Shown here piece by piece: positions 68 to 12,280 of a DNA stretch of 29,892 bases. The stretch is from contig CBDUMJ010000001.1 in the NCBI GenBank assembly GCA_965368285.1, forward strand, positions 1 through 29,892, written 5' to 3'. The notes below the pieces were generated by a model. It did no database searches. It was not told where the DNA came from and worked only from the letters and a program-made list of their open reading frames with translations. The translations under genes and the position numbers were made by a program. Every line of letters begins with the position of its first letter. The stretch's first letter is position 1. The DNA is from an uncultured archaeon (GTDB taxonomy: Archaea; Thermoproteota; Bathyarchaeia; TCS64).

Positions 68-618
68 GTTTTATAATGACTCACGTCACGGAGGGGAAAG
101 TAATCCTTGAGTCTCATTACATGTCTTCTCCAAATAGGATCATCCACAGTCATCCATTCCGCACCCTTCTTTTCTAAAAACCTGGAAAACCCTTTTATAG
201 CCCGAAAGGATGCTTCAAGAGTAGCTCCGCTTGTAACCGCTAAAAGTTGACCCAGAGCTTTGTACGATTTGGTAGGCGGACGCTTTTTGAAAATAGGAAT
301 CCTACGACCCTTGTACGTTATCCACTTTATGATGTCCTCTTTTGGTCTGAGGGTACGACGAGTTAAGTCCTCTAATGGTCCAAAAAGCTCTGTTGGTTTA
401 AAATCCGGTTTTGGTTCAAACACGTAATCTCCCACTTGGTTGCGGAACACAGTAACATGCGGTATGAACCCTTCTATTATGTCACTTGGGATCCCTTCAG
501 GGAATGCTGGGCATGTAAAAGTCTGAGGGTTAAAGTGTTTACATCCGTAACATAAAAAAACGACCCTCCAATCAGGCGGAAGTATCCCAAAAAGTTCGTC
601 TAAAGCACTGTTCATCAC
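68..618 (-). CDS. 3'-truncated phage protein with N-terminal Cys/His domain (CxxCxH...CxAFPxGIP...H) and a WITxxGxxIPI motif
   Basis: ORF track; CYGCKH, TCPAFPEGIP and WITYKGRRIPI motifs; start overlaps stop of 615-1220; true C-terminus replaced by adapter. Confidence 0.7.
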
Positions 619-1220
619 ATTTCCACCTTACGGTAAGGTTGTTTTTCCAGCACTAAATTGTACACTGCAAGTGCCCCTTGAGGCGGATCCGCTTTTGAAA
701 CAACTGGTCTTTTATTGATGGGAAACATTCGTGTCAGACGGATGTACAGAGGGACATAGTAGTACATATTAAACTCTTTCGGTACGTAGAAGGTATGCTT
801 AGATTTCAAGTAGCGCACACACCCCAACCAAACTATAAGCCGTCGAGGTGCTTTTTGGTGAAGATGACGCGTACTGATAGAGATGTACGGGCCCTTTGCA
901 CTCTTTGGGTAAAGGGGTGCGTAACGTTTATGCGTCCAATCGTAAGGCATAGCAACAAGGTCGTACAGTGGGACGTAAGGCGAAAAAGGAGTGATATAGC
1001 TAGCCTCGATGTAATGAGTTCGGGTTGGAAGATAACGCGATAGCATTTTGATGCACTTTTGTGCTACCACATCGTCTTTAAGCTGTAGTGTAAAAAACAT
1101 GACATCTAGGTCATGACTGACAAGCGAGGTCACTGCAGATCCTACTAGGGCTATGTACGGCCGTTTGATCTTAAAAGGCAGCATTTGTTCGCTTATACAG
1201 CGCTTAACTTGATAGGTCAA
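615..1220 (-). CDS. Pol-beta-superfamily nucleotidyltransferase-like protein, apparently two tandem copies of the fold
   Basis: YIALVGSAVTSLVSHDLDV fits hhhGS-x(7-10)-DhD; PYI..., YVPLY and (Y/V)(D/N)LV segments recur in the second half; TTG start. Confidence 0.5.
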   Translation of the reverse strand: MTYQVKRCISEQMLPFKIKRPYIALVGSAVTSLVSHDLDVMFFTLQLKDDVVAQKCIKMLSRYLPTRTHYIEASYITPFSPYVPLYDLVAMPYDWTHKRYAPLYPKSAKGPYISISTRHLHQKAPRRLIVWLGCVRYLKSKHTFYVPKEFNMYYYVPLYIRLTRMFPINKRPVVSKADPPQGALAVYNLVLEKQPYRKVEM

Positions 1221-1287
1221 GGTACTAACCTTGACTTAACCCCCCTTACACATGTAGATAGAAGAAAACACTTTTCAGGAGATTTAT

Positions 1288-4200
1288 ATGGATAGGTTGA
1301 AGGGAGTGACGTCTTTTGACACATCAATCCAGTGGTCATACACAACTTCTTTACAAGCTTCGGTCTTGAGACAGATATATAGAGACACTAACACAATAAG
1401 AAGGTGTGTTGACCAAATTGCGACGACGATCGCTGGACTCCCTTTTGAAGTGAAGGTGTCTCATCCATTCAAGAAGGAAGTAATCTCCGCTATTTTTGAA
1501 GGAGTGGGTCCCACAGGTGAAACATTTAAGGAAGTCCTTCAAGCATGTGTTGTTGACATGCTTGTCATCAACAAAGGTGTTATATTACCTGTGTTCACAC
1601 TTGGGTCTCAACTGAAAAGTTTCACCGCAAGAGACGCGGGCACGTTTGCTCCTGTGTTTAGAAAAGATGGGGTTCTCTTAGGATACATTCAGGAGGTCAA
1701 TGGTAAAAAATTTGAATTCAAACCAGATGAGGTTATTGTTATAGCTGGGGTCAAAAGGACCTACACTATTGGATCCTTATCTATCATTGAGTCTCTGACT
1801 TACGAGATCACTAATTTGGTTTACTCACTCCAGCGGATGCACAAGAAAGGAAGGCCACCAATTGGTGTTTTCGTAGTGCAAGAGGACGTAGGAAAGGAGG
1901 TAATAGAAAAACTACAGGCAGACTTAACCAACTTAGTTCAAGAACAGTCAACTAAAGTGCCAATTCTTTGGGGTGCTGGTAGAGGCGAGTGGATTGACAT
2001 AGTAAAACAACTAGACGTTCAACTCATAACCTCCTTCTTAGACCGAATGGATTGGCTGGTACGTTCAGCGTTTGGTTTCTCCAATCCTGGAGATAGTTTA
2101 GGCAGGCAAACCGCGCGACCTTTATTGTATTCGACCTACACACCTCATATTGTAACAGCTATCCAAGATCAACTCAATCACTTTCTCCGCCCTTACGGTA
2201 TCAATATAAGATTCAAAATACCCCCCGCTCATACTATATCAGAGTTGCTACTAGCTGCGAGGTCTGGGCTTATTTCACCTAACGAAGCAAGGGCATTCCT
2301 GCACTTACCACCCGCTCAAGGTGGTGACACACTCACTATCTTACAACCACAAGGTCTCACACCTGTTGGTGGGACAAAGCCTCCTGGTGGGGGAGCAAAA
2401 CCTCCTACCCAAGAACCTATAGTTGTGACCCCAGCTCGTGCTGAATCAGAGGACCCGTTTCAAGAGATAAAAAGGGCTGCCGAGTTAGAATATCTAGAAA
2501 GCGTACGTAACTTGAACCTGATTAGTGACCCTAAGACAGCTGACTTTGTATCTAAGCGGATGACTCTTTCAATGAAGCTAACCAAAAAGCTCAGGAAAGT
2601 ACATGAGGAGCTCACAGAGAAACTGTGCGAAAAGTTCATGCTAGTCAGAGCAGACGTTACCCCTACACTCGATCCATTGGACAAATGGTTCTACACGCAA
2701 ATACAGAACGCCTTGAAAGATGTGACCCCTGACGCTCTTCAGACAGGGTACTACTGGGTAGATAGGTACTGGCCTTCTTATGACAAAGATTATGTCGACG
2801 CTGAAACTGTACGTTCATTAAAGAAGATTAACGACTATATGACTCGTCAGTGGACTTCAAAATATCAAGAAGTCAAGAAAGACGCAGAAAAGAGAGATTG
2901 GGACAAAGTAAGAGATGATTTACATAAGTTACTCCTAAGCTTCCTGGCAGCGGGTGCGTTCGTTGGTTACCTTACACACTTACCCCTCCAGGCTGTAACT
3001 CGATTTTTTACCCTAAAAGGCAAAACTATCTATTACAAATGGGTTGGCACTGGCGATGAGAACATGTGTCAAGACTGTCGGGAGATGCACGGTAAAGTCT
3101 TCTCGCAAACTGAACTTGAGTTTATAGGTAGGTGGCCGGGCTGTGGTGAGCCTTACAAAGCTAGGGGAGTAAGATGTAACGGTAAATGTCGGTGCGTGTT
3201 AATTCCTGTCGATATAGAGGAGACCAGGTTTGAAGTAGATTGGCTCCAAAAAGTCATCCCAGTAAGAGGCCTGCACTTACCCAAGTCCGAGCTGCTGGCA
3301 ATAGGCGCGCTTGATCATGTCGATAAGAAAATCCGGGATATTTTACTAAAAGAACCTCGATTACGTGAACCTGCTTACTTTGCTTTGTTTGACAAAATAA
3401 CAACCACAGCGGCTGAGACACCATATTATAACCCGCTGGTAAACACGCTGTACATCCCTGCAAAAGCAACACATTCAACAGTAAGAAGTGCGTTTGTTGA
3501 CGCAGTTGTTGAGAACCTAATGTTTAGGAACAACTTTCTCGACCCATACTCACCCATCACAGCCCAGCTCGCAGCTATAATGCAAAAGGCTCGTGAGGAT
3601 GTGTGGGAAACTCGCTTGTGGAAAGTGTTCAGAAAGGTTGGTATAGAACTCGGCAAAGAACCGTACATTAAATTAGAAGAGGCGTGGAAGTTTGGGAACT
3701 TGGCGCCTTTTGAGAAGTTCACCTTACCACTCGACTTTCCTAAAGAAGCGTATGTGGATCCGATGTTGTTCTTTAAACACATGTTTCGCGCGGTTATCTT
3801 CACACCTCATAGGGAAATACCTGGTAAAGTAGCGTTTGAAGACTTCCTAGCATCAACACTTTGGACACCAAGTTCTTACAAAAAATGGGTTGGCAAGTCA
3901 CTTGAGAGACTGGGGCGGCCTTGGCCCGCTGTAACAAGTGTTGATGCGATTATGAAAAGAATTCCCTACGTCGACGAAAAGATCGAACCGTACATCCGAG
4001 CCCTATTGGAAACCTACCCCTTCCTAAGAGTCCCAGCTATATGGGAAGGACTCAACTATATTGGATTCAGTAAGACTACTTCAACATTTAACGCGTCGTA
4101 TATTTTAGGACGTGGGTATGAGAAGTTTATGGAATCATTCAACTCATCTATTGTAGTTACTCCTAACCTTTACCAGATACTTCATGAATTAGGTCACCAT

Positions 4201-5610
4201 ATCTTTGAACGTCATGTCATGTACAACACACTACTAGGGTCCACCTATGGGCAGGTCTACCTCTATGGGATCCTGTATCCTTTCGTAGAGAGGGCTACCT
4301 TATATGCAAAAAGTGAGAAGGAAGTAGCGAAGTTAATTGGATTTCTTGAGTACTTGGTGGAGAAAGAACAAAAGGGCCAGCTTCAAGCGGCTTTACTGGC
4401 TAGTTCGTCGTACATACGCGAAAACCTCATCAAGCCGTTCCAAGACAGGTTACCTGAGATTACGAAAAACTTATCTATTCCTCTCCGGGTGTATGCTATC
4501 TCAGACCCAGCGGAATCCTTCGCTGAGTTGTTTGCAACATTTGTAACCAAGCCCACAATCCTGCGGTACAGTTCACCCGAGCTTTACGACTACTTCTTAT
4601 CCTTAATGAGAGCAGTAGCAGTGAAGCCTCTCGCTGAGCTCAAAACCGAGAGAATGTGGAAAGAGTACATAGAGGCGATGAAGAAGCTGAAGCTCAGCCC
4701 CGATCAAATAAGAGAAGCAATAGAGTCTACTTTAACTGTTATGGCATCCACAGAAGCACAAAACTGGGATACAGTTGGCATGATGATTCGTAGGATTATA
4801 GCTGCGTCTAGGAGCGACAAGAGTTTATTGTTGGAGTTAGAGAAAGAAAAAGTGATTGATGTGCAAGGATTTAGTGAACAGCTAAATAAGATGACGGAAT
4901 ACTCAAGGCTAAAGGCATTAGAGGAAGCGCGTAAGAGGCCTGTCACTGCAGCAATTTTAAAGCGCGAAAGAGAGAAATATAAGAGGTTATTTGAGTTCTT
5001 AGCGGACACTAAAGGTAAGGATTTTCACAACGTGGTCGTTGAGTTTGTAGCAAAACTCGCGCCCGAAGAGCAATGTGAACCCATAGTGAACAAAATCTTC
5101 GCTTACTTGGACAGACAAGGATGGAGTAAGGATGCAATGTACGATGTATGGCGTCGGCTGAAAAACATTCGGTCTGGCGGTAAGCCAAGACAAGATGCGT
5201 ATAAATGGTTCGAAGAAGAAATGAAAGTCAAATGGACTTTGAAAAGGCCATGGGAGAAGAAAAAGAAAGTCATCGAAGCTGCTAAGCGTGAAAAGTGGTT
5301 TATCAAGTTCCAAGAAGCGGCAAAGGGTAAAGACTTTCGTAAGTTAGTCGCTAAGTTTGTGACAAAACTGACATCGGAAGAACAGCAGGTGCCGGTTGCG
5401 AACAAAATCTTTGCTTACCTAAATAAGCACGGGTGGAGCGAAGACGCAAAATTTAACGTGTGGCGCCACTTAAGAGGTATTGTGTTAGGTGGTAAATGGA
5501 GAGAAGACGCGTTTGAATGGTTTAAGAAGGAGGTGGGGATTGTCTGGGTGGCGCCAAAACGCCGTCCTGAAGAACAGTACCTCATCAAACTCCTAAAAGG
5601 AGGCGAGTAA
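1288..5610 (+). CDS. Portal protein fused to MuF (SPP1 gp7-like) head morphogenesis domain, zincin metallopeptidase domain(s) and a C-terminal duplicated helical domain
   Basis: Portal-like RRCVDQIATTIAGLPF...GLISPNEARAFLHLPPAQGGD (first ~350 aa); MuF-like YKWVGTGDENMCQDC...CNGKCRCVLIP; HELGH at 4183-4197 with downstream DPAESFAE; one uninterrupted ORF; AGGAG SD. Confidence 0.85.
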   Translation: MDRLKGVTSFDTSIQWSYTTSLQASVLRQIYRDTNTIRRCVDQIATTIAGLPFEVKVSHPFKKEVISAIFEGVGPTGETFKEVLQACVVDMLVINKGVILPVFTLGSQLKSFTARDAGTFAPVFRKDGVLLGYIQEVNGKKFEFKPDEVIVIAGVKRTYTIGSLSIIESLTYEITNLVYSLQRMHKKGRPPIGVFVVQEDVGKEVIEKLQADLTNLVQEQSTKVPILWGAGRGEWIDIVKQLDVQLITSFLDRMDWLVRSAFGFSNPGDSLGRQTARPLLYSTYTPHIVTAIQDQLNHFLRPYGINIRFKIPPAHTISELLLAARSGLISPNEARAFLHLPPAQGGDTLTILQPQGLTPVGGTKPPGGGAKPPTQEPIVVTPARAESEDPFQEIKRAAELEYLESVRNLNLISDPKTADFVSKRMTLSMKLTKKLRKVHEELTEKLCEKFMLVRADVTPTLDPLDKWFYTQIQNALKDVTPDALQTGYYWVDRYWPSYDKDYVDAETVRSLKKINDYMTRQWTSKYQEVKKDAEKRDWDKVRDDLHKLLLSFLAAGAFVGYLTHLPLQAVTRFFTLKGKTIYYKWVGTGDENMCQDCREMHGKVFSQTELEFIGRWPGCGEPYKARGVRCNGKCRCVLIPVDIEETRFEVDWLQKVIPVRGLHLPKSELLAIGALDHVDKKIRDILLKEPRLREPAYFALFDKITTTAAETPYYNPLVNTLYIPAKATHSTVRSAFVDAVVENLMFRNNFLDPYSPITAQLAAIMQKAREDVWETRLWKVFRKVGIELGKEPYIKLEEAWKFGNLAPFEKFTLPLDFPKEAYVDPMLFFKHMFRAVIFTPHREIPGKVAFEDFLASTLWTPSSYKKWVGKSLERLGRPWPAVTSVDAIMKRIPYVDEKIEPYIRALLETYPFLRVPAIWEGLNYIGFSKTTSTFNASYILGRGYEKFMESFNSSIVVTPNLYQILHELGHHIFERHVMYNTLLGSTYGQVYLYGILYPFVERATLYAKSEKEVAKLIGFLEYLVEKEQKGQLQAALLASSSYIRENLIKPFQDRLPEITKNLSIPLRVYAISDPAESFAELFATFVTKPTILRYSSPELYDYFLSLMRAVAVKPLAELKTERMWKEYIEAMKKLKLSPDQIREAIESTLTVMASTEAQNWDTVGMMIRRIIAASRSDKSLLLELEKEKVIDVQGFSEQLNKMTEYSRLKALEEARKRPVTAAILKREREKYKRLFEFLADTKGKDFHNVVVEFVAKLAPEEQCEPIVNKIFAYLDRQGWSKDAMYDVWRRLKNIRSGGKPRQDAYKWFEEEMKVKWTLKRPWEKKKKVIEAAKREKWFIKFQEAAKGKDFRKLVAKFVTKLTSEEQQVPVANKIFAYLNKHGWSEDAKFNVWRHLRGIVLGGKWREDAFEWFKKEVGIVWVAPKRRPEEQYLIKLLKGGE

Positions 5611-6191
5611 TGAGAGGTTTCATTATTGAAGTAAAATCCAACCGAGTAGTTGGAATATGGACTATTACCTTTGGCAGCTTATTCGTGTCGACGCCTGACG
5701 ACACGGTTAAGAGGCGAATAAGCAAGGGCATCCTACGGTCCAAACCTACTATATACCGTGGAAAGTTGTTCACTGAACCTGATTACATTCAGCCAGCAAA
5801 TGCAACGTTAGCTGAACTGACAGAAGCCCTTTCACCTGACTACGTGTGTGTAGCGGAAGAGGACATGGAAGAAGGTGCTATAAAGTTCCCACCACAAGAA
5901 GCTAAACTTACCTCAAACAACCTAGTTGGTCTTGTTACAAAAGATAACAAGGTTGTAGATGTATGGTGCTATGCCGGAGGTGAAATAAAATCACGCGTTC
6001 GTCCTAAGGGTTCAATAGAGACGAATGAAGTTGAAGTGTCGGAAACCAGTGCTGGGAATCTTAGGTGTGTAACAAGAACCGAGCGTGCGAGAAAGGCGGA
6101 ACCTGTAAGTTTGGGTGAAATTTCTTTAGCAACACCATATGCATTTTTACCAATGAGGTACTTTAAATGGGTAGAAAGAAAAAAGTCTTAG
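5610..6191 (+). CDS. Hypothetical protein with internal duplication, coupled to the portal-MuF gene
   Basis: TAATG stop/start overlap; IIEVKSNRVVGIW and LVTKDNKVVDVW repeats. Confidence 0.75.
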   Translation: MRGFIIEVKSNRVVGIWTITFGSLFVSTPDDTVKRRISKGILRSKPTIYRGKLFTEPDYIQPANATLAELTEALSPDYVCVAEEDMEEGAIKFPPQEAKLTSNNLVGLVTKDNKVVDVWCYAGGEIKSRVRPKGSIETNEVEVSETSAGNLRCVTRTERARKAEPVSLGEISLATPYAFLPMRYFKWVERKKS

Positions 6192-6436
6192 AATTAGGTT
6201 TAGCGTCAGCACCACATAAGAAGACGACAAACGATGAAGAAAGTAGTACTGGCAGCACCGTCGATGTGGTCGCTACTAGAATAAAAGAAGCGCTCTTAAA
6301 TAACCCTAATTTGAAACCACAAACGTGGATGGAAGTAGTCAAAGGACTGGAGCTTCTACTCAAGTATAAAGGCGAAGGCGACCCCGACGATGTAATCGAA
6401 CTGTTTGAGGAGAAGTTAAAGGATTTTGAGCCGTGA
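6167..6436 (+). CDS. Putative terminase small subunit
   Basis: Short helical charged ORF directly upstream of, and overlapping (GTGA), terL; call is positional only. Confidence 0.5.
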   Translation: MGRKKKVLELGLASAPHKKTTNDEESSTGSTVDVVATRIKEALLNNPNLKPQTWMEVVKGLELLLKYKGEGDPDDVIELFEEKLKDFEP

Positions 6437-7836
6437 ACATCAAAACACTCCGGAGATTGTGCCGCGAAAGTTTCGCATCATTCCTAACCTTCGTCTTCGA
6501 CTTCCCCCTAGCGGACCTTCATAAACAATGGTGTACGTTCTTAGAAACTAAACGGAAAATTCTCATCCTTTCTCCAAGAGCGCACGGGAAGAGTTCGGTC
6601 GTCTCCATAGCTTACCCGTGCTGGAGGATCGGGCTCAACACTAATATCAGGATCAAGATAGTTGCGAACTCAAACGAAAAGGCGAAGGAACTTTTATCAG
6701 CAATCACTCAAACACTGCTTTTTTCACCAAAGTACCGTGCTATTTTCCCTCACGTGAGACCATCTAAAGCCAGGTACTGGACTAAAGAAAGAATCTTTGT
6801 GGAGAGAAGCTTGGCGCTCAGAGATGCAACAGTAGAAGGTAAAGGGATAATTGCGACTGGTACTGGAGGAAGAAGTGACCTCCTTATTTGCGATGATATA
6901 TGTGACAACAGGACGGCGGCTACAAAAGGTATGATAAGAAAGGTAAAAGAAGCGTTCTTTGACGTCTGGATGAACACACTAGAGCCACAAGGTCACCAAG
7001 TTGTAGTCATCGGCACTACATGGGCAGAGGAAGATGTATACGCTGACCTTCTAAGAAAGAAAGGTTGGTGCCGTAAGATATGGAAGATAAATGAGAACTT
7101 TGATCCTCTATGGCCTCAAGTATGGCCGCGAGAGAAGCTGTACGACAAGTGGAAGGATGATCCACTAGCGTTTGAAAAAGGTTTCCGGATGCAGCCCATT
7201 CGGGTGGAGACTGTGTTATTCTCTAGAGAGTGCTTCAAACAGAGACACGATTGGCCTCTCACTCCCGGTTCCAACCCACCTGAGTATACAAGCCTTACGG
7301 AACCATATGTCAGAAAATACATGGGAGTTGACATCTCTGGTGGTCATGGTAAGGACTACTCAGTTTTATTCACGACGGGTGTCCACGCAGAAACACGGAT
7401 GCGGTGGCCGATTAACATAATAAGAGTCAAAGCAGCCGCACCTGAGGTCGCGAGACTACTGATCAGGGAGTACGAGAAGTATAAACCAGAAGTGATCCTA
7501 GTTGAGTCCAACGCTACCCAGCAAATGCTATTTGATTGGGTGGGTGAACTAAGGAAGCTCCCCATAAAGTCTTATTACACAGGTACGCAAAAGCACTATG
7601 TCAATGTTGGCATCCCGTCTTTAAGAGTTGAATTAGATAATAATATGTGGCACATCCCCTATTGGAGCCATGACCCTGGTTGTGAGTGTTCTTTTTGCGC
7701 ATGGAAACGTGAAGTGCTAAGTTATCCTTATAGCACCTATGATGACTGTGTAATGGCCTGGTGGTTCACAAGGGAAGCGATTCGACTCTACTTTGAGGGC
7801 ATGGGGAAGGGCGGCTACGCTGTGGTGGAGCTATAA
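6433..7836 (+). CDS. terL: Terminase large subunit
   Basis: Walker A LSPRAHGKS, Walker B LLICDDI, coupling motif VIGTTW, RNase H-like nuclease YMGVDIS and DDCVMAW. Confidence 0.93.
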   Translation: MNIKTLRRLCRESFASFLTFVFDFPLADLHKQWCTFLETKRKILILSPRAHGKSSVVSIAYPCWRIGLNTNIRIKIVANSNEKAKELLSAITQTLLFSPKYRAIFPHVRPSKARYWTKERIFVERSLALRDATVEGKGIIATGTGGRSDLLICDDICDNRTAATKGMIRKVKEAFFDVWMNTLEPQGHQVVVIGTTWAEEDVYADLLRKKGWCRKIWKINENFDPLWPQVWPREKLYDKWKDDPLAFEKGFRMQPIRVETVLFSRECFKQRHDWPLTPGSNPPEYTSLTEPYVRKYMGVDISGGHGKDYSVLFTTGVHAETRMRWPINIIRVKAAAPEVARLLIREYEKYKPEVILVESNATQQMLFDWVGELRKLPIKSYYTGTQKHYVNVGIPSLRVELDNNMWHIPYWSHDPGCECSFCAWKREVLSYPYSTYDDCVMAWWFTREAIRLYFEGMGKGGYAVVEL

Positions 7837-7910: not shown

Positions 7911-9047
7911 ATGCGTGGTAAGGTTCTAATCGCAGGTATAGACGGTTTTATAGGATTTGCATTAGCGCAAAATTTAGTAGCACACGGGTTCGAGGTTTAT
8001 GGTATCGACAACCTCTTCAGAAGGAAGGTCGCAACGTCCATAACCCCAATTGCGTCAGTAGAAGACAGGGTTCACACCCTATCAATTGGCTTCGAAGTCT
8101 GTGACGTAACTGATTGGCCCCACTTCTTAGACGTACTCCGCAGAGTCGATCCAGACGCTATTGTGTATTTAGCACATCAACCTAGTGCACCGTACTCTAT
8201 GAAGGACCGAGAGAGCTGCTTTGAAACTACGTTCACCAACACTATTGGACCTTTAAACCTTGTTTGGGCTCTGCGAGAATTAAAGATGGATGTACACGTT
8301 ATAGTAATCGGAACCTTAGGAGAGTACGCGGCGTCTAACATCCCTATTTCAGAAAAGGGACTGGAAGTTAGCTACGGACCGTTCAAGGAAGTCCTACCAT
8401 ACCCCCGTAGAGGAATCTCTTTCTATCACGATACAAAAATCTTAGGCTCTCTTTATCTGGAGTTAGCGTGCAACTGCTGGGGGTTAACAGTGACTGACGT
8501 GATGCAAGGTGTTGTCTTTGGTGTATTAACAGAGGAAATAGACGGGAAAGACGAACTCTTATTCACACGCTTTGACGCAGATGAACTGTTTGGGACTTAT
8601 CTCAATCGTCTATGCGCCGAAGCTGCAACTAAAGATGTCTCGTTAACCGTCTACGGTTCGGGGAATCAAAAGAGAGGCTTCCTGCCTTTAAGAGACTCCA
8701 TTCAGTGCCTTCGTTTGTTATTAGAGAACCCACCCAGACGTGGAGAGTATAGGCTAGTTAATCAGTTAATGGAAGTCTATAGGCTGGAAGACCTGGCTAG
8801 AACTGTTAAAAGAATTTCAATGGAGGAATTTGGTATTTTCACAAAGATGAAGTACTATCCCAATCCAAGAGTTGAAAGAGAAGACATTGACTTATACAAA
8901 GTAGAGAAAGGAATCTTAGACAGCCTTGGTTACAAGCCTTCAATTACTCTTGAAGAAGAAATCAAGAACACTATTGAAATTTGTATAAAATATCGTAAGA
9001 GGATTCCTAGAAAGCTATTGAAACCGCGTACTAGATGGCGCCCTTAA
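7911..9047 (+). CDS. sqdB: UDP-sulfoquinovose synthase (SQD1/SqdB/Agl3, extended SDR family)
   Basis: GIDGFIG Rossmann motif, DNLFRR, SITPIAS, QPSAPYSM, GTLGEY (catalytic Thr), FYHDTK (YxxxK), DVMQGVVFG, DELFGTYLNR, LTVYGSGNQKRG, NPRVE; colinear with SQD1 family signatures along the whole length. Confidence 0.9.
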   Translation: MRGKVLIAGIDGFIGFALAQNLVAHGFEVYGIDNLFRRKVATSITPIASVEDRVHTLSIGFEVCDVTDWPHFLDVLRRVDPDAIVYLAHQPSAPYSMKDRESCFETTFTNTIGPLNLVWALRELKMDVHVIVIGTLGEYAASNIPISEKGLEVSYGPFKEVLPYPRRGISFYHDTKILGSLYLELACNCWGLTVTDVMQGVVFGVLTEEIDGKDELLFTRFDADELFGTYLNRLCAEAATKDVSLTVYGSGNQKRGFLPLRDSIQCLRLLLENPPRRGEYRLVNQLMEVYRLEDLARTVKRISMEEFGIFTKMKYYPNPRVEREDIDLYKVEKGILDSLGYKPSITLEEEIKNTIEICIKYRKRIPRKLLKPRTRWRP

Positions 9048-11569: not shown

Positions 11570-11869
11570 ATGGCGAACCTGAAAGAACTCATCGGCAAGG
11601 CCCTACAGGAGCAAGGCCAGCAAGGCGGCGGGCACATCACTGCCATGCGCCAACTCCTGGGCAAAATCGAGCGCGAGCATGGCCGCGAGGTGATCAGGCA
11701 ACTCAGGCCCTCTGGGTTCCGCCTGATCTTCGCAGCAGTCCACCCTGACTTGGCAAAGAAGGTCGGGAACCAGCACGAGTACGCCTGCCAGCTGAACCAC
11801 TACAAGGCCAACAACGACTTCAAGTATGACAGGGTCAACAAGACTTGGATCGACACTAGGGCTAAATAA
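11570..11869 (+). CDS. Hypothetical protein, paralog of 16181-16516; GC-rich codon usage
   Basis: ATG 6 nt after SD (track GTG at 11561 lies inside the SD); LKELIGKAL...GHITAMRQL...LRPSGFR. Confidence 0.85.
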   Translation: MANLKELIGKALQEQGQQGGGHITAMRQLLGKIEREHGREVIRQLRPSGFRLIFAAVHPDLAKKVGNQHEYACQLNHYKANNDFKYDRVNKTWIDTRAK

Positions 11870-11870
11870 T

Positions 11871-11908
11871 CCCGCCCAGGGCCCCGGCGGGAAAAGGTAA
11901 AGGGGCCC
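11871..11908 (+). ncRNA. Predicted H-type RNA pseudoknot 1 (3' of the 11570 gene)
   Basis: S1 CCCGCC/GGCGGG, L1 CA, S2 GGGCCCC/GGGGCCC, L2 0 nt, L3 AAAAGGTAAA. Confidence 0.7.
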
Positions 11909-11940
11909 AGTAAAGAAATGACCCGTTCAGGGGATTGCGA

Positions 11941-11985
11941 CTGGCCCGGGCCCATCCAGGCCAATCTAGGGTCAGAAAGGAGGTG
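11941..11985 (+). promoter_or_regulatory. Structured leader element copy 2 + SD
   Basis: CTGGCCC-G-GGCC(CATCCA)GGCC-AATCTA-GGGTCAG-AAAGGAGGTG. Confidence 0.75.
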
Positions 11986-11992
11986 GAGGAAG

Positions 11993-12280
11993 ATGATGTT
12001 AAGGTTCATAGAGGCGGGTGATGGCCCCTTCGAGGGTACTCACGCCGTAGATATAGGTGTTGAGACCACACGAGGGGAGCGAATCAGCGCGCGGCTCTTC
12101 TTCGGCAAGAAGGGTTTCGCAATCGACAACCTGATCTATCAGAGAACCGCTGAGTCATCAAAAGTATGCGTCAAGAGCCTTAGTGATCTCGATTGCGCGT
12201 CCTTGGAAGCACGTGATTGGGTTGTGTCAATGTTCGGGATTGAGACTGGCATAGAAGAGGAGGTGGAGGAAGATGAATGA
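11993..12280 (+). CDS. Hypothetical acidic protein
   Basis: ATG after leader SD; track start 11918 reads through the leader element. Confidence 0.75.
   Translation: MMLRFIEAGDGPFEGTHAVDIGVETTRGERISARLFFGKKGFAIDNLIYQRTAESSKVCVKSLSDLDCASLEARDWVVSMFGIETGIEEEVEEDE

Follow-up and report, generated by a model that had tools for sequence, protein, structure and literature searches.

The window analysed here is an entire 29.9-kb contig (29,892 nucleotides (nt); GenBank assembly GCA_965368285.1, contig CBDUMJ010000001.1) from a metagenome-assembled genome (MAG) of an uncultured Bathyarchaeia archaeon (2.55 Mb, 76% complete). It carries viral genes, and we found that the sole portal gene of this virus is a single open reading frame (ORF) in which an HK97-type portal domain is continued, on the same polypeptide, by a MuF module, a putative degenerate zincin-like domain, a predicted metallopeptidase of the anthrax lethal factor (LF)/MtfA type and a duplicated basic tail (Table 1). 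Portal-MuF and MuF-effector elements are known; what is new is that they are joined here to a rare pair of LF/MtfA-like zincins and to a basic duplication specific to the lineage. The reading of this ORF as a portal, MuF and metallopeptidase fusion, made in an initial annotation from the letters of the window, is supported by profile matches, by motif conservation, by a matching fold and by the retention of the architecture in relatives. Related proteins and loci are referred to below by P and L numbers, respectively.

An ORF of this length could be an assembly or frameshift artefact that fuses separate portal, MuF and protease genes, and in the most distant clade of relatives the portal and the MuF-zincin are indeed called as two genes. 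However, a single ORF of 1441 amino acids (aa) is kept in four further assemblies, from ENA, JGI and two IMG/VR records, where the protein is 97-98% identical to that of the window, and contigs from four vent metagenome runs aligned to the fusion gene with substitutions only and zero indels; one 10.8-kb vent contig covers the full ORF with 63 substitutions and 0 gaps. The frame that had been taken as continuous is thus free of stops and indels in five independent assemblies and in the contigs of four metagenome runs. One frame is also retained in relatives at 35-40% identity, which encode single ORFs of 1283-1435 aa. The whole gene length is under purifying selection: the ratio of non-synonymous to synonymous substitution rates (dN/dS) between the window and its sister strains is 0.045-0.049 for the whole gene and 0.015-0.12 for its parts. 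Even the clade with the apparent split is without a start codon for the MuF-zincin frame, and we regard an artefact as next to impossible. The whole fusion protein gave no match at E 1e-5 when searched by tblastn against 50,697 phage records.

Portal motifs had been noticed in about the first 350 residues, and it is there that phrog_12 (E 1.5e-22, residues 19-227), the Pfam family Phage_portal (PF04860; E 4e-6, residues 36-230) and TIGR01537 (E 1e-5) match. The PF04860 score of 26.5 bits is under the cut-off of 39.1, which the relatives P0009, P0005 and P0006 exceed. The domain ends in a GLISPNEAR..LPP..GGD crown motif that is invariant among relatives. In a 131,001-bp IMG/VR record of the virus, 91% complete according to CheckV, one portal match was found, namely the fusion gene.

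The Pro/Gly-rich linker that follows is among the least conserved parts of the protein (21-32% identity to relatives, with a 9-residue indel). The stretch KPPGGGAKPP within it had been put forward as a hinge or cleavage point; its variability and indels fit such a role, but its Pro-Pro pairs are absent from relatives. For the same reason these pairs were rejected as PPEP-type cleavage sites. A slip site or internal start in the linker was likewise rejected: the next GTG is 29 nt away from GGTGGGGGAG, and at the junction the window has no runs other than an A5 and a G5 at 2389, the latter being G4A in the sister strains, so that no conserved slippery run is present. With a sole portal gene and no conserved slip site, every portal subunit would be translated with its cargo, which upholds the earlier estimate of up to 12 protease domains per portal. 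The C-terminus of a portal protein lies at the crown, in the capsid interior, and the 122-kDa extension would accordingly be located at the portal vertex, within the head.

The MuF module stands directly after the portal domain, as it stands directly after the portal ORF in the most distant clade. One of its profile matches is to phrog_2662, a 717-position 'portal' family that itself spans the portal-MuF junction and that matches residues 324-641 at profile positions 389-708 (E 3e-15). Pfam Phage_Mu_F (PF04233) matches residues 578-639 with E 7e-5 to 3e-4, at 22-24 bits against a cut-off of 29.6, and is matched by two of seven family members; TIGR01641 matches the MuF stretch with E 6e-4, below its curated cut-off, and the MuF-type PHROGs 595, 115, 24918 and 3517 match the same stretch in P0001 or P0008. 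The Cys-rich motif, located by the initial annotation at about 3030-3206, could be placed at nt 3067-3195, where the MuF profiles match. C597, C630, C634 and C636 are invariant in all seven aligned lineages, and C594 is invariant among close homologues and lost in P0009. The motif WVG..D..CxxC...PG...C..CRC.L.P is kept in most aligned lineages; in P0009 the first Cys of CxxC is missing and the PG pair is down to a single Pro. PDB sequence searches with the MuF profile or the portal part returned nothing significant.

As a separate observation, three relatives (L002/P0003, L012, L013, P0004) carry a mini-intein of about 157 aa immediately ahead of the first Cys in the CxxC motif of MuF, with the equivalent of C594 as its +1 residue; in L002 it occupies approximately 11790-12270, corresponding to P0003 residues ~598-755. 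The element starts with Cys, contains a TPDH block and the motif VYDV..HT..NG..SGN, and a Cys follows it. Inteins make up the top three PDB sequence matches of this region (E 0.16-0.95), and phrog_85 matches the region too. The window gene is without the intein.

The HELGH and ESFAE motifs on which a zincin had been proposed are present at residues 966-970 (nt 4183-4197) and 1076-1080 (nt 4513-4527), respectively. H966, E967, L968, G969, H970, Y1069, E1076 and F1078 are invariant in seven homologues of 23-37% identity, so that both the HExxH and E1076 are fully kept; the other positions of ESFAE vary. An AlphaFold (AF2) model of residues 641-1200 was obtained from a 7-row alignment with a mean predicted local distance difference test (pLDDT) of 78. 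When residues 884-1115 were compared using VIA-align, the top seven of 48,161 chains were all LF-type folds, led by the LF catalytic domain (Z 10.6), MtfA (Z 8.8) and PPEP-2 (Z 8.3), with Certhrax, LF-N and EF-N at Z 7.7-8.1. The best BFVD match of the zincin model is a phage 'endopeptidase family M34' protein (E 4e-3, prob 1.0), and the segment YA.SDPAE.FA aligns residue for residue with the MtfA chains 9srw and 3dl1. In the LF/MtfA family the catalytic tyrosine stands seven residues ahead of the Glu ligand.

Foldseek of the 641-1200 model found no match in the PDB at E <= 0.001 and, among AFDB clusters, no more than weak zincin-type matches, so that the LF/MtfA fold came to light only through the wide VIA-align search. 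PDB sequence searches with the zincin region and its profile gave nothing significant, returning a short MtfA motif only (E 0.26-0.6). In P0001, P0007, P0008 and P0009, Peptidase_M90 (PF06167) reached 15-18 bits, short of its cut-off of 26.2, and we therefore name the domain LF/MtfA-like rather than a member of M34 or M90. Weakly scoring BFVD and Atlas neighbours include a 'large polyvalent protein associated domain' and ArdC-N/LPD proteins. Its catalytic residues being complete, the domain is predicted to be a metallopeptidase; its role in the virus is one that we infer.

Upstream of it, residues 646-880 contain AFVDA in place of an HExxH. In VIA-align they resembled minimal zincins and ArdC weakly (Z 5.0-5.5), and they also matched DUF45, M76, IrrE, DUF4157 and DUF6782 models. 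With moderate confidence, based on the model, we assign this region as a second, degenerate zincin-like domain. A full HMMER pass with region 645-1135 over 1.84 billion representative proteins found only four representative relatives, all four of which are joined to portal and MuF either directly or in the -1 frame: P0007, P0008 and P0009 have portal or MuF matches of their own, and P0010, with no PHROG or Pfam match, is tied to a portal ORF by its locus.

The duplicated tail described in the initial annotation was recovered as two repeats, residues 1228-1317 and 1334-1421, aligned at 50% identity (E 1e-31). This duplication is specific to the window lineage; in relatives a Lys/Pro-rich linker is followed by a single, shorter copy. 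AlphaFold of residues 1116-1440 (6 rows) gave an all-helical model with a mean pLDDT of 48 that was unusable for fold search, and an Atlas feature search with the tail returned nothing.

The most distant clade of relatives very probably arrives at the same protein by another route. It comprises three lineages (L016, L018 and L019-L021) with 47-80% identity, found on five contigs that come from different samples, and the gene callers split the locus into a portal of 441-446 aa and a MuF-zincin of 694-717 aa. Relative to the portal ORF, the MuF-zincin lies in the -1 frame, and in all five contigs a T9 run is kept in constant phase, xxT TTT TTT TTC GAA. In L018 and L019-L021 stops close the MuF-zincin frame until 3 nt before T9, and in L016 this frame is open from 63 nt upstream of T9. 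There is no ATG, GTG or TTG in it for 65-105 codons after T9. These start-less codons are nevertheless under purifying selection (ratio of non-synonymous to synonymous polymorphism, pN/pS, of 0.20 for L018 vs L019) and can be aligned to the MuF-N region of the fusion proteins. T9 exceeds every other homopolymer of its locus; pairwise identity is 80-95% in its 20-nt core, compared with 56-81% in the flanks for those pairs. An RNA hairpin after T9 reached only -6.3 kcal/mol with no covariation, and we claim no RNA stimulator.

Judged from these sequence features, the overlap very probably reflects programmed -1 frameshifting or transcriptional slippage that would give a portal-MuF-zincin protein beside the plain portal. 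The fusion would be a minor product, arising from a -1 shift on T_TTT_TTC or else from slippage of the polymerase on T9. Since the sister clade would make the same fusion by a conserved recoding site, the covalent link between portal and cargo appears itself to be selected. Our searches of the literature turned up no description of portal-MuF recoding, and scans of metagenomes, viral contigs and genome contigs returned no further members of the clade. Separately, L018 carries at 1642-2544 a 300-aa ORF with a faint LAGLIDADG_3 match, between the portal and an upstream 485-aa ORF of the size of the large terminase subunit (TerL) of L016; in L019 the ORF in the position of this 485-aa ORF (557-2530) has 657 aa. 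These features point to a homing endonuclease or an intein within the terminase gene or next to it.

In the zincin, 59-63 synonymous and 4-5 non-synonymous changes separate the strains (dN/dS 0.015-0.017). The synonymous divergence (dS) is mosaic, with values of 0.02-0.08 for residues 1-880 (0.12-0.22 in the linker), 0.5-0.9 for residues 881-1320 and 0.14-0.15 for repeat 2, which points to a homologous recombination tract over the zincin, spacer and repeat 1 (window 3928-5247). Within this divergent tract the strains remain homologous, with dN/dS of 0.015-0.053. The same two zincin-type domains are found in nine of nine relatives, with identities that track that of the portal (Table 1) and no domain exchange. 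A zincin that is uniform, diverges together with the portal and has such a low dN/dS argues for a conserved part of the virion, not for a polymorphic toxin. The analogy with polymorphic toxins drawn in the initial annotation accordingly finds no support; nor could an immunity partner be shown.

We propose the following model for the fusion protein. The C-terminal extension of the portal, consisting of the MuF module, an inactive zincin-like domain, an LF/MtfA-type metallopeptidase and two basic helical repeats, would project into the capsid, and the covalent link would stand in place of the non-covalent portal-MuF docking of SPP1 gp6/gp7. Cargo would thereby be built into every procapsid at the portal vertex, at 122 kDa per chain and up to 12 chains, or ~1.5 MDa. 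The zincin would act as a working enzyme that cuts the cargo free at its flexible linkers, whether in cis or across adjacent subunits, and it would do so either inside the head or at ejection. The freed MuF, zincin and DNA-binding-like tail may then exit through the portal channel with the DNA end. Such self-release is the most economical reading of a cargo that is locked in while joined to the portal, of a protease that is intact and constrained, and of linkers that are flexible and fast-evolving; we give it about an even chance of being correct.

Several points weigh against this proposal. No cleavage site, processed fragment or protease activity has been observed, and since relatives lack the Pro-Pro pairs of the linker, there is no conserved site to point to. 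The Peptidase_M90 score is under the gathering cut-off. As the tail could not be folded (pLDDT 48), its possible binding of DNA is suggested solely by its charge. Lastly, a sister clade that obtains the fusion by frameshifting only suggests that few copies suffice, against 12 in the window lineage.

The zincin might instead be an ejected effector which, freed by a Peptidase_S78 protease or by itself, passes into the host along with the DNA and attacks host proteins there, for instance those of defence or regulation. The best fold matches of the zincin, of the LF/M34 and MtfA/M90 types, are substrate-specific endopeptidases, LF, PPEP and MtfA each acting on particular proteins, and the order of a degenerate followed by an active zincin recalls the inactive N-terminal copy of LF. 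In addition, 20% of MuF toxins carry metallopeptidases (PMC5576092), and an effector role has been allowed for the zincin-like metallopeptidases (MPTases) of phage head proteins by Iyer et al. (PMC5512222). The domain is however not polymorphic, the same zincin co-diverging with the portal in every relative, nothing like an immunity partner has been shown, and detachment from the portal would still need processing beforehand. We consider this role rather unlikely as the sole explanation; it is compatible with self-release, and both could hold.

A second alternative is a permanent inner body under the portal, in which 12 arms organise or retain the DNA end and the zincin serves in assembly only, for instance by trimming scaffold or adjacent proteins, or is mainly structural. 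With a sole portal gene and no slip site 12 arms would be made, their basic repeats have net charges of +9 and +12, and by our own estimate 1.5 MDa of cargo takes up well under 1% of the interior of a 131-kb capsid. The virion RNA polymerase of phage N4 is packaged unprocessed despite its MPTase (PMC5512222). On the other hand, invariant catalytic residues and a dN/dS of ~0.016 favour catalysis over structure alone, a Peptidase_S78 prohead protease is already available for scaffold removal, and the sister clade would make a fraction of its subunits as fusion. A permanent inner body therefore seems to us distinctly unlikely.

The same S78 protease bears on whether the zincin could be the main head-maturation protease of the virus. 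Such a function would agree with an enzyme fixed at the portal inside the procapsid, and the MuF region matches phrog_595, which is annotated as 'head maturation protease'. That match, however, covers the MuF Cys motif only (residues 583-644) and not the zincin. Furthermore, contigs nearly identical to the window that reach beyond its left end carry a Peptidase_S78 gene adjacent to this module; in the more distant relatives L002 and L017 the S78 gene lies beside an HK97/SU10-type major capsid protein gene recognised by Pfam matches, and in the near-identical strain L003 it lies beside a cut 299-aa ORF. With a separate S78 prohead protease the zincin would not be needed as the canonical maturation enzyme, and this function is highly improbable. 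Returning to self-release, there is a wider and tentative picture, which we regard as possible though somewhat unlikely: covalent attachment to the portal would be the general means by which this viral group loads a MuF-protease, the dose would be evolvable (T9 slippage in the sister clade, a fixed 12 in the window lineage), and the protease would both free itself and, once ejected, hit host proteins, out of a hitherto unrecognised 1.5-MDa inner body at the portal vertex of a probably archaeal virus.

The fusion gene is followed by two small genes and by the gene for TerL. In every fused relative examined, the gene after MuF-zincin encodes a homologue of the 193-aa protein, at 24% identity, and Pfam, PHROG, other profile and Atlas searches assigned the protein to no recognisable family. 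Complex prediction of the zincin region with the 193-aa protein as a candidate immunity or inhibitor partner scored 0.00 with a partner pLDDT of 49, which is evidence for neither side. In the distant clade, genes in the same position after MuF-zincin encode 199-202 aa and then 89 aa (L018-L021) or 116 aa (L016). Comparison of the 193-aa gene with the larger of these gave a weak hhalign match (E 4e-4, probability 35%), and the likeness of the 89-aa gene is one of size and position only. Since genes of these types follow MuF-zincin also where TerL lies upstream of the portal, they would belong with the fusion gene and not with the terminase.

Two further genes of the neighbourhood were noted. 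A divergent 201-aa ORF at window 615-1220 (- strand) carries a GS...HDLD motif and resembles a minimal nucleotidyltransferase; it has no Pfam or PHROG match, and its positional counterpart in L002 shares 38% identity with it (E 8e-42). Directly after TerL, within the morphogenesis block, window 7911-9047 encodes an NAD-dependent sugar epimerase/dehydratase (PF01370, E 3e-21), and such a gene is found near the fusion gene in L002 too.

This tailed virus is present in more than 20 hydrothermal-vent or sediment metagenomes. Its host is probably archaeal: archaeal ribosomal protein S28e was found in the MAG, bacterial L20 was not found, and no rRNA was found in it. Binning is weak evidence for a host, and the MAG of the relative P0003 is labelled 'bacterium' at NCBI.

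Table 1. Features of the fusion gene, its neighbours and the recoded clade. Positions are nt of the window unless a locus is named; identities are to the four closest lineages (L002, L012, L013 and L015/P0007); pI, isoelectric point.
Feature	Residues	Position	Strand	Identity	Remarks
Shine-Dalgarno-like AGGAG		1277-1281	+		6 nt ahead of the ATG start
Whole fusion ORF	1-1440	1288-5610	+		1440 aa, 165.7 kDa, pI 9.2; sole portal gene of the virus
HK97-type portal domain	1-360	1288-2367	+	49-53%	profile matches
Pro/Gly-rich linker	361-395	2368-2472	+	about 17-30%	variable, indels; hinge or candidate cleavage region
MuF module	396-645	2473-3222	+	37-40% (core); about 17-30% (helical part)	fast-evolving helical part, then conserved WVG..D..CxxC...PG...CxxxCRC core
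Cys cluster	C594, C597, C630, C634, C636	3067-3195	+		probable metal site of MuF, by motif
Degenerate zincin-like domain (putative)	646-880	3223-3927	+	36-43%	three strands and a helix in the model; moderate evidence
Active-looking anthrax-LF/MtfA-type zincin	881-1115	3928-4632	+	36-39%	H966-E967-x-x-H970, Y1069, E1076
Helical spacer	1116-1215	4633-4932	+	about 17-30%	poorly conserved, 14-20% identity
Basic repeat 1	1216-1320	4933-5247	+	about 17-30% (tail)	pI 9.8, net charge +9
Basic repeat 2	1321-1440	5248-5607	+	about 17-30% (tail)	pI 10.0, net charge +12
193-aa gene		5610-6191	+		coupled to the fusion gene: TAATG stop/start overlap, AGGAGG inside the fusion gene end
89-aa gene		6167-6436	+		conserved downstream partner of the fusion gene
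Large terminase subunit TerL		6433-7836	+		phrog_38, E 8e-63
Portal/MuF-zincin -1 overlap at T9		L016:7686-8001; L018:3794-4001; L019:3809-4001; L020:1468-1660; L021:957-1149

A portal with an LF/MtfA-type protease on every subunit makes the targeting, counting and release of internal head proteins directly testable, and the family offers a natural comparison between a hard-wired fusion (12 copies) and a sister lineage that would make the fusion by frameshifting only (few copies). The hydrothermal-vent viruses also add a rare, deeply diverged family to the zincins.

Portal-MuF fusion genes have been published for Microbacterium phages of clusters EA3, EA5, EA8 and EB (PMC7302621). These fusions, like PHROG 2662 and the window gene, place the portal and a minor capsid protein resembling MuF in one ORF. 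Those of the Microbacterium type are ~700-970 aa long (for example P0005 and P0006) and end after MuF or a short extension, whereas the window protein has 800 more residues, made up of two zincin-type domains and the basic duplicated tail.

Zincin-like MPTases are the commonest domain of the phage 'polyvalent' head proteins, for which autoprocessing has been proposed; fusions of portal, MuF and PBECR domains exist among them, and 12 MPTase clades have been described from bacterial phages and plasmids (PMC5512222). The window protein resembles polyvalent proteins in having several unrelated domains on one virion polypeptide, a zincin MPTase as hub and portal/MuF as packaging handle, and with portal, MuF, two zincin-type domains and a basic repeat encoded near TerL it can be counted among them. 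Their proposed role, self-processing and/or early effector, is the one considered here. In contrast to the described clades, the zincin of the window matches best to the LF/MtfA type and is not assigned to any of the 12, and its contig was binned with an archaeal MAG.

The MuF protein gp7 of phage SPP1 binds the portal, and the MuF polymorphic toxins of temperate phages have a metallopeptidase as C-terminal domain in 20% of cases (PMC5576092). Both these toxins and the window protein carry a MuF followed by a C-terminal enzymatic domain and are encoded in the packaging module. They differ in that the window zincin is uniform in relatives, has been shown with no immunity gene and belongs to a MuF that is fused to the portal.

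LF (M34), PPEP-1/2 and MtfA (M90) share with the window zincin the HExxH helix and the Tyr seven residues before the Glu ligand, and LF also has an inactive zincin-like domain upstream. Sequence similarity to LF and MtfA is however under the family cut-offs, and ~105 residues with a helical insert separate HExxH from Glu in the window zincin. The context differs too, being a virion portal here and a secreted toxin or cytoplasmic regulator for LF, PPEP and MtfA. Lastly, the sister clade recalls the -1 frameshift of lambda G/GT in that its downstream frame would be reached only through a -1 shift where the portal ORF ends, on T_TTT_TTT_TTC. Unlike lambda G/GT, the window gene has no slip site and its fusion is hard-wired, so that in this lineage the ratio of plain portal to cargo-bearing portal would not be settable by frameshifting.

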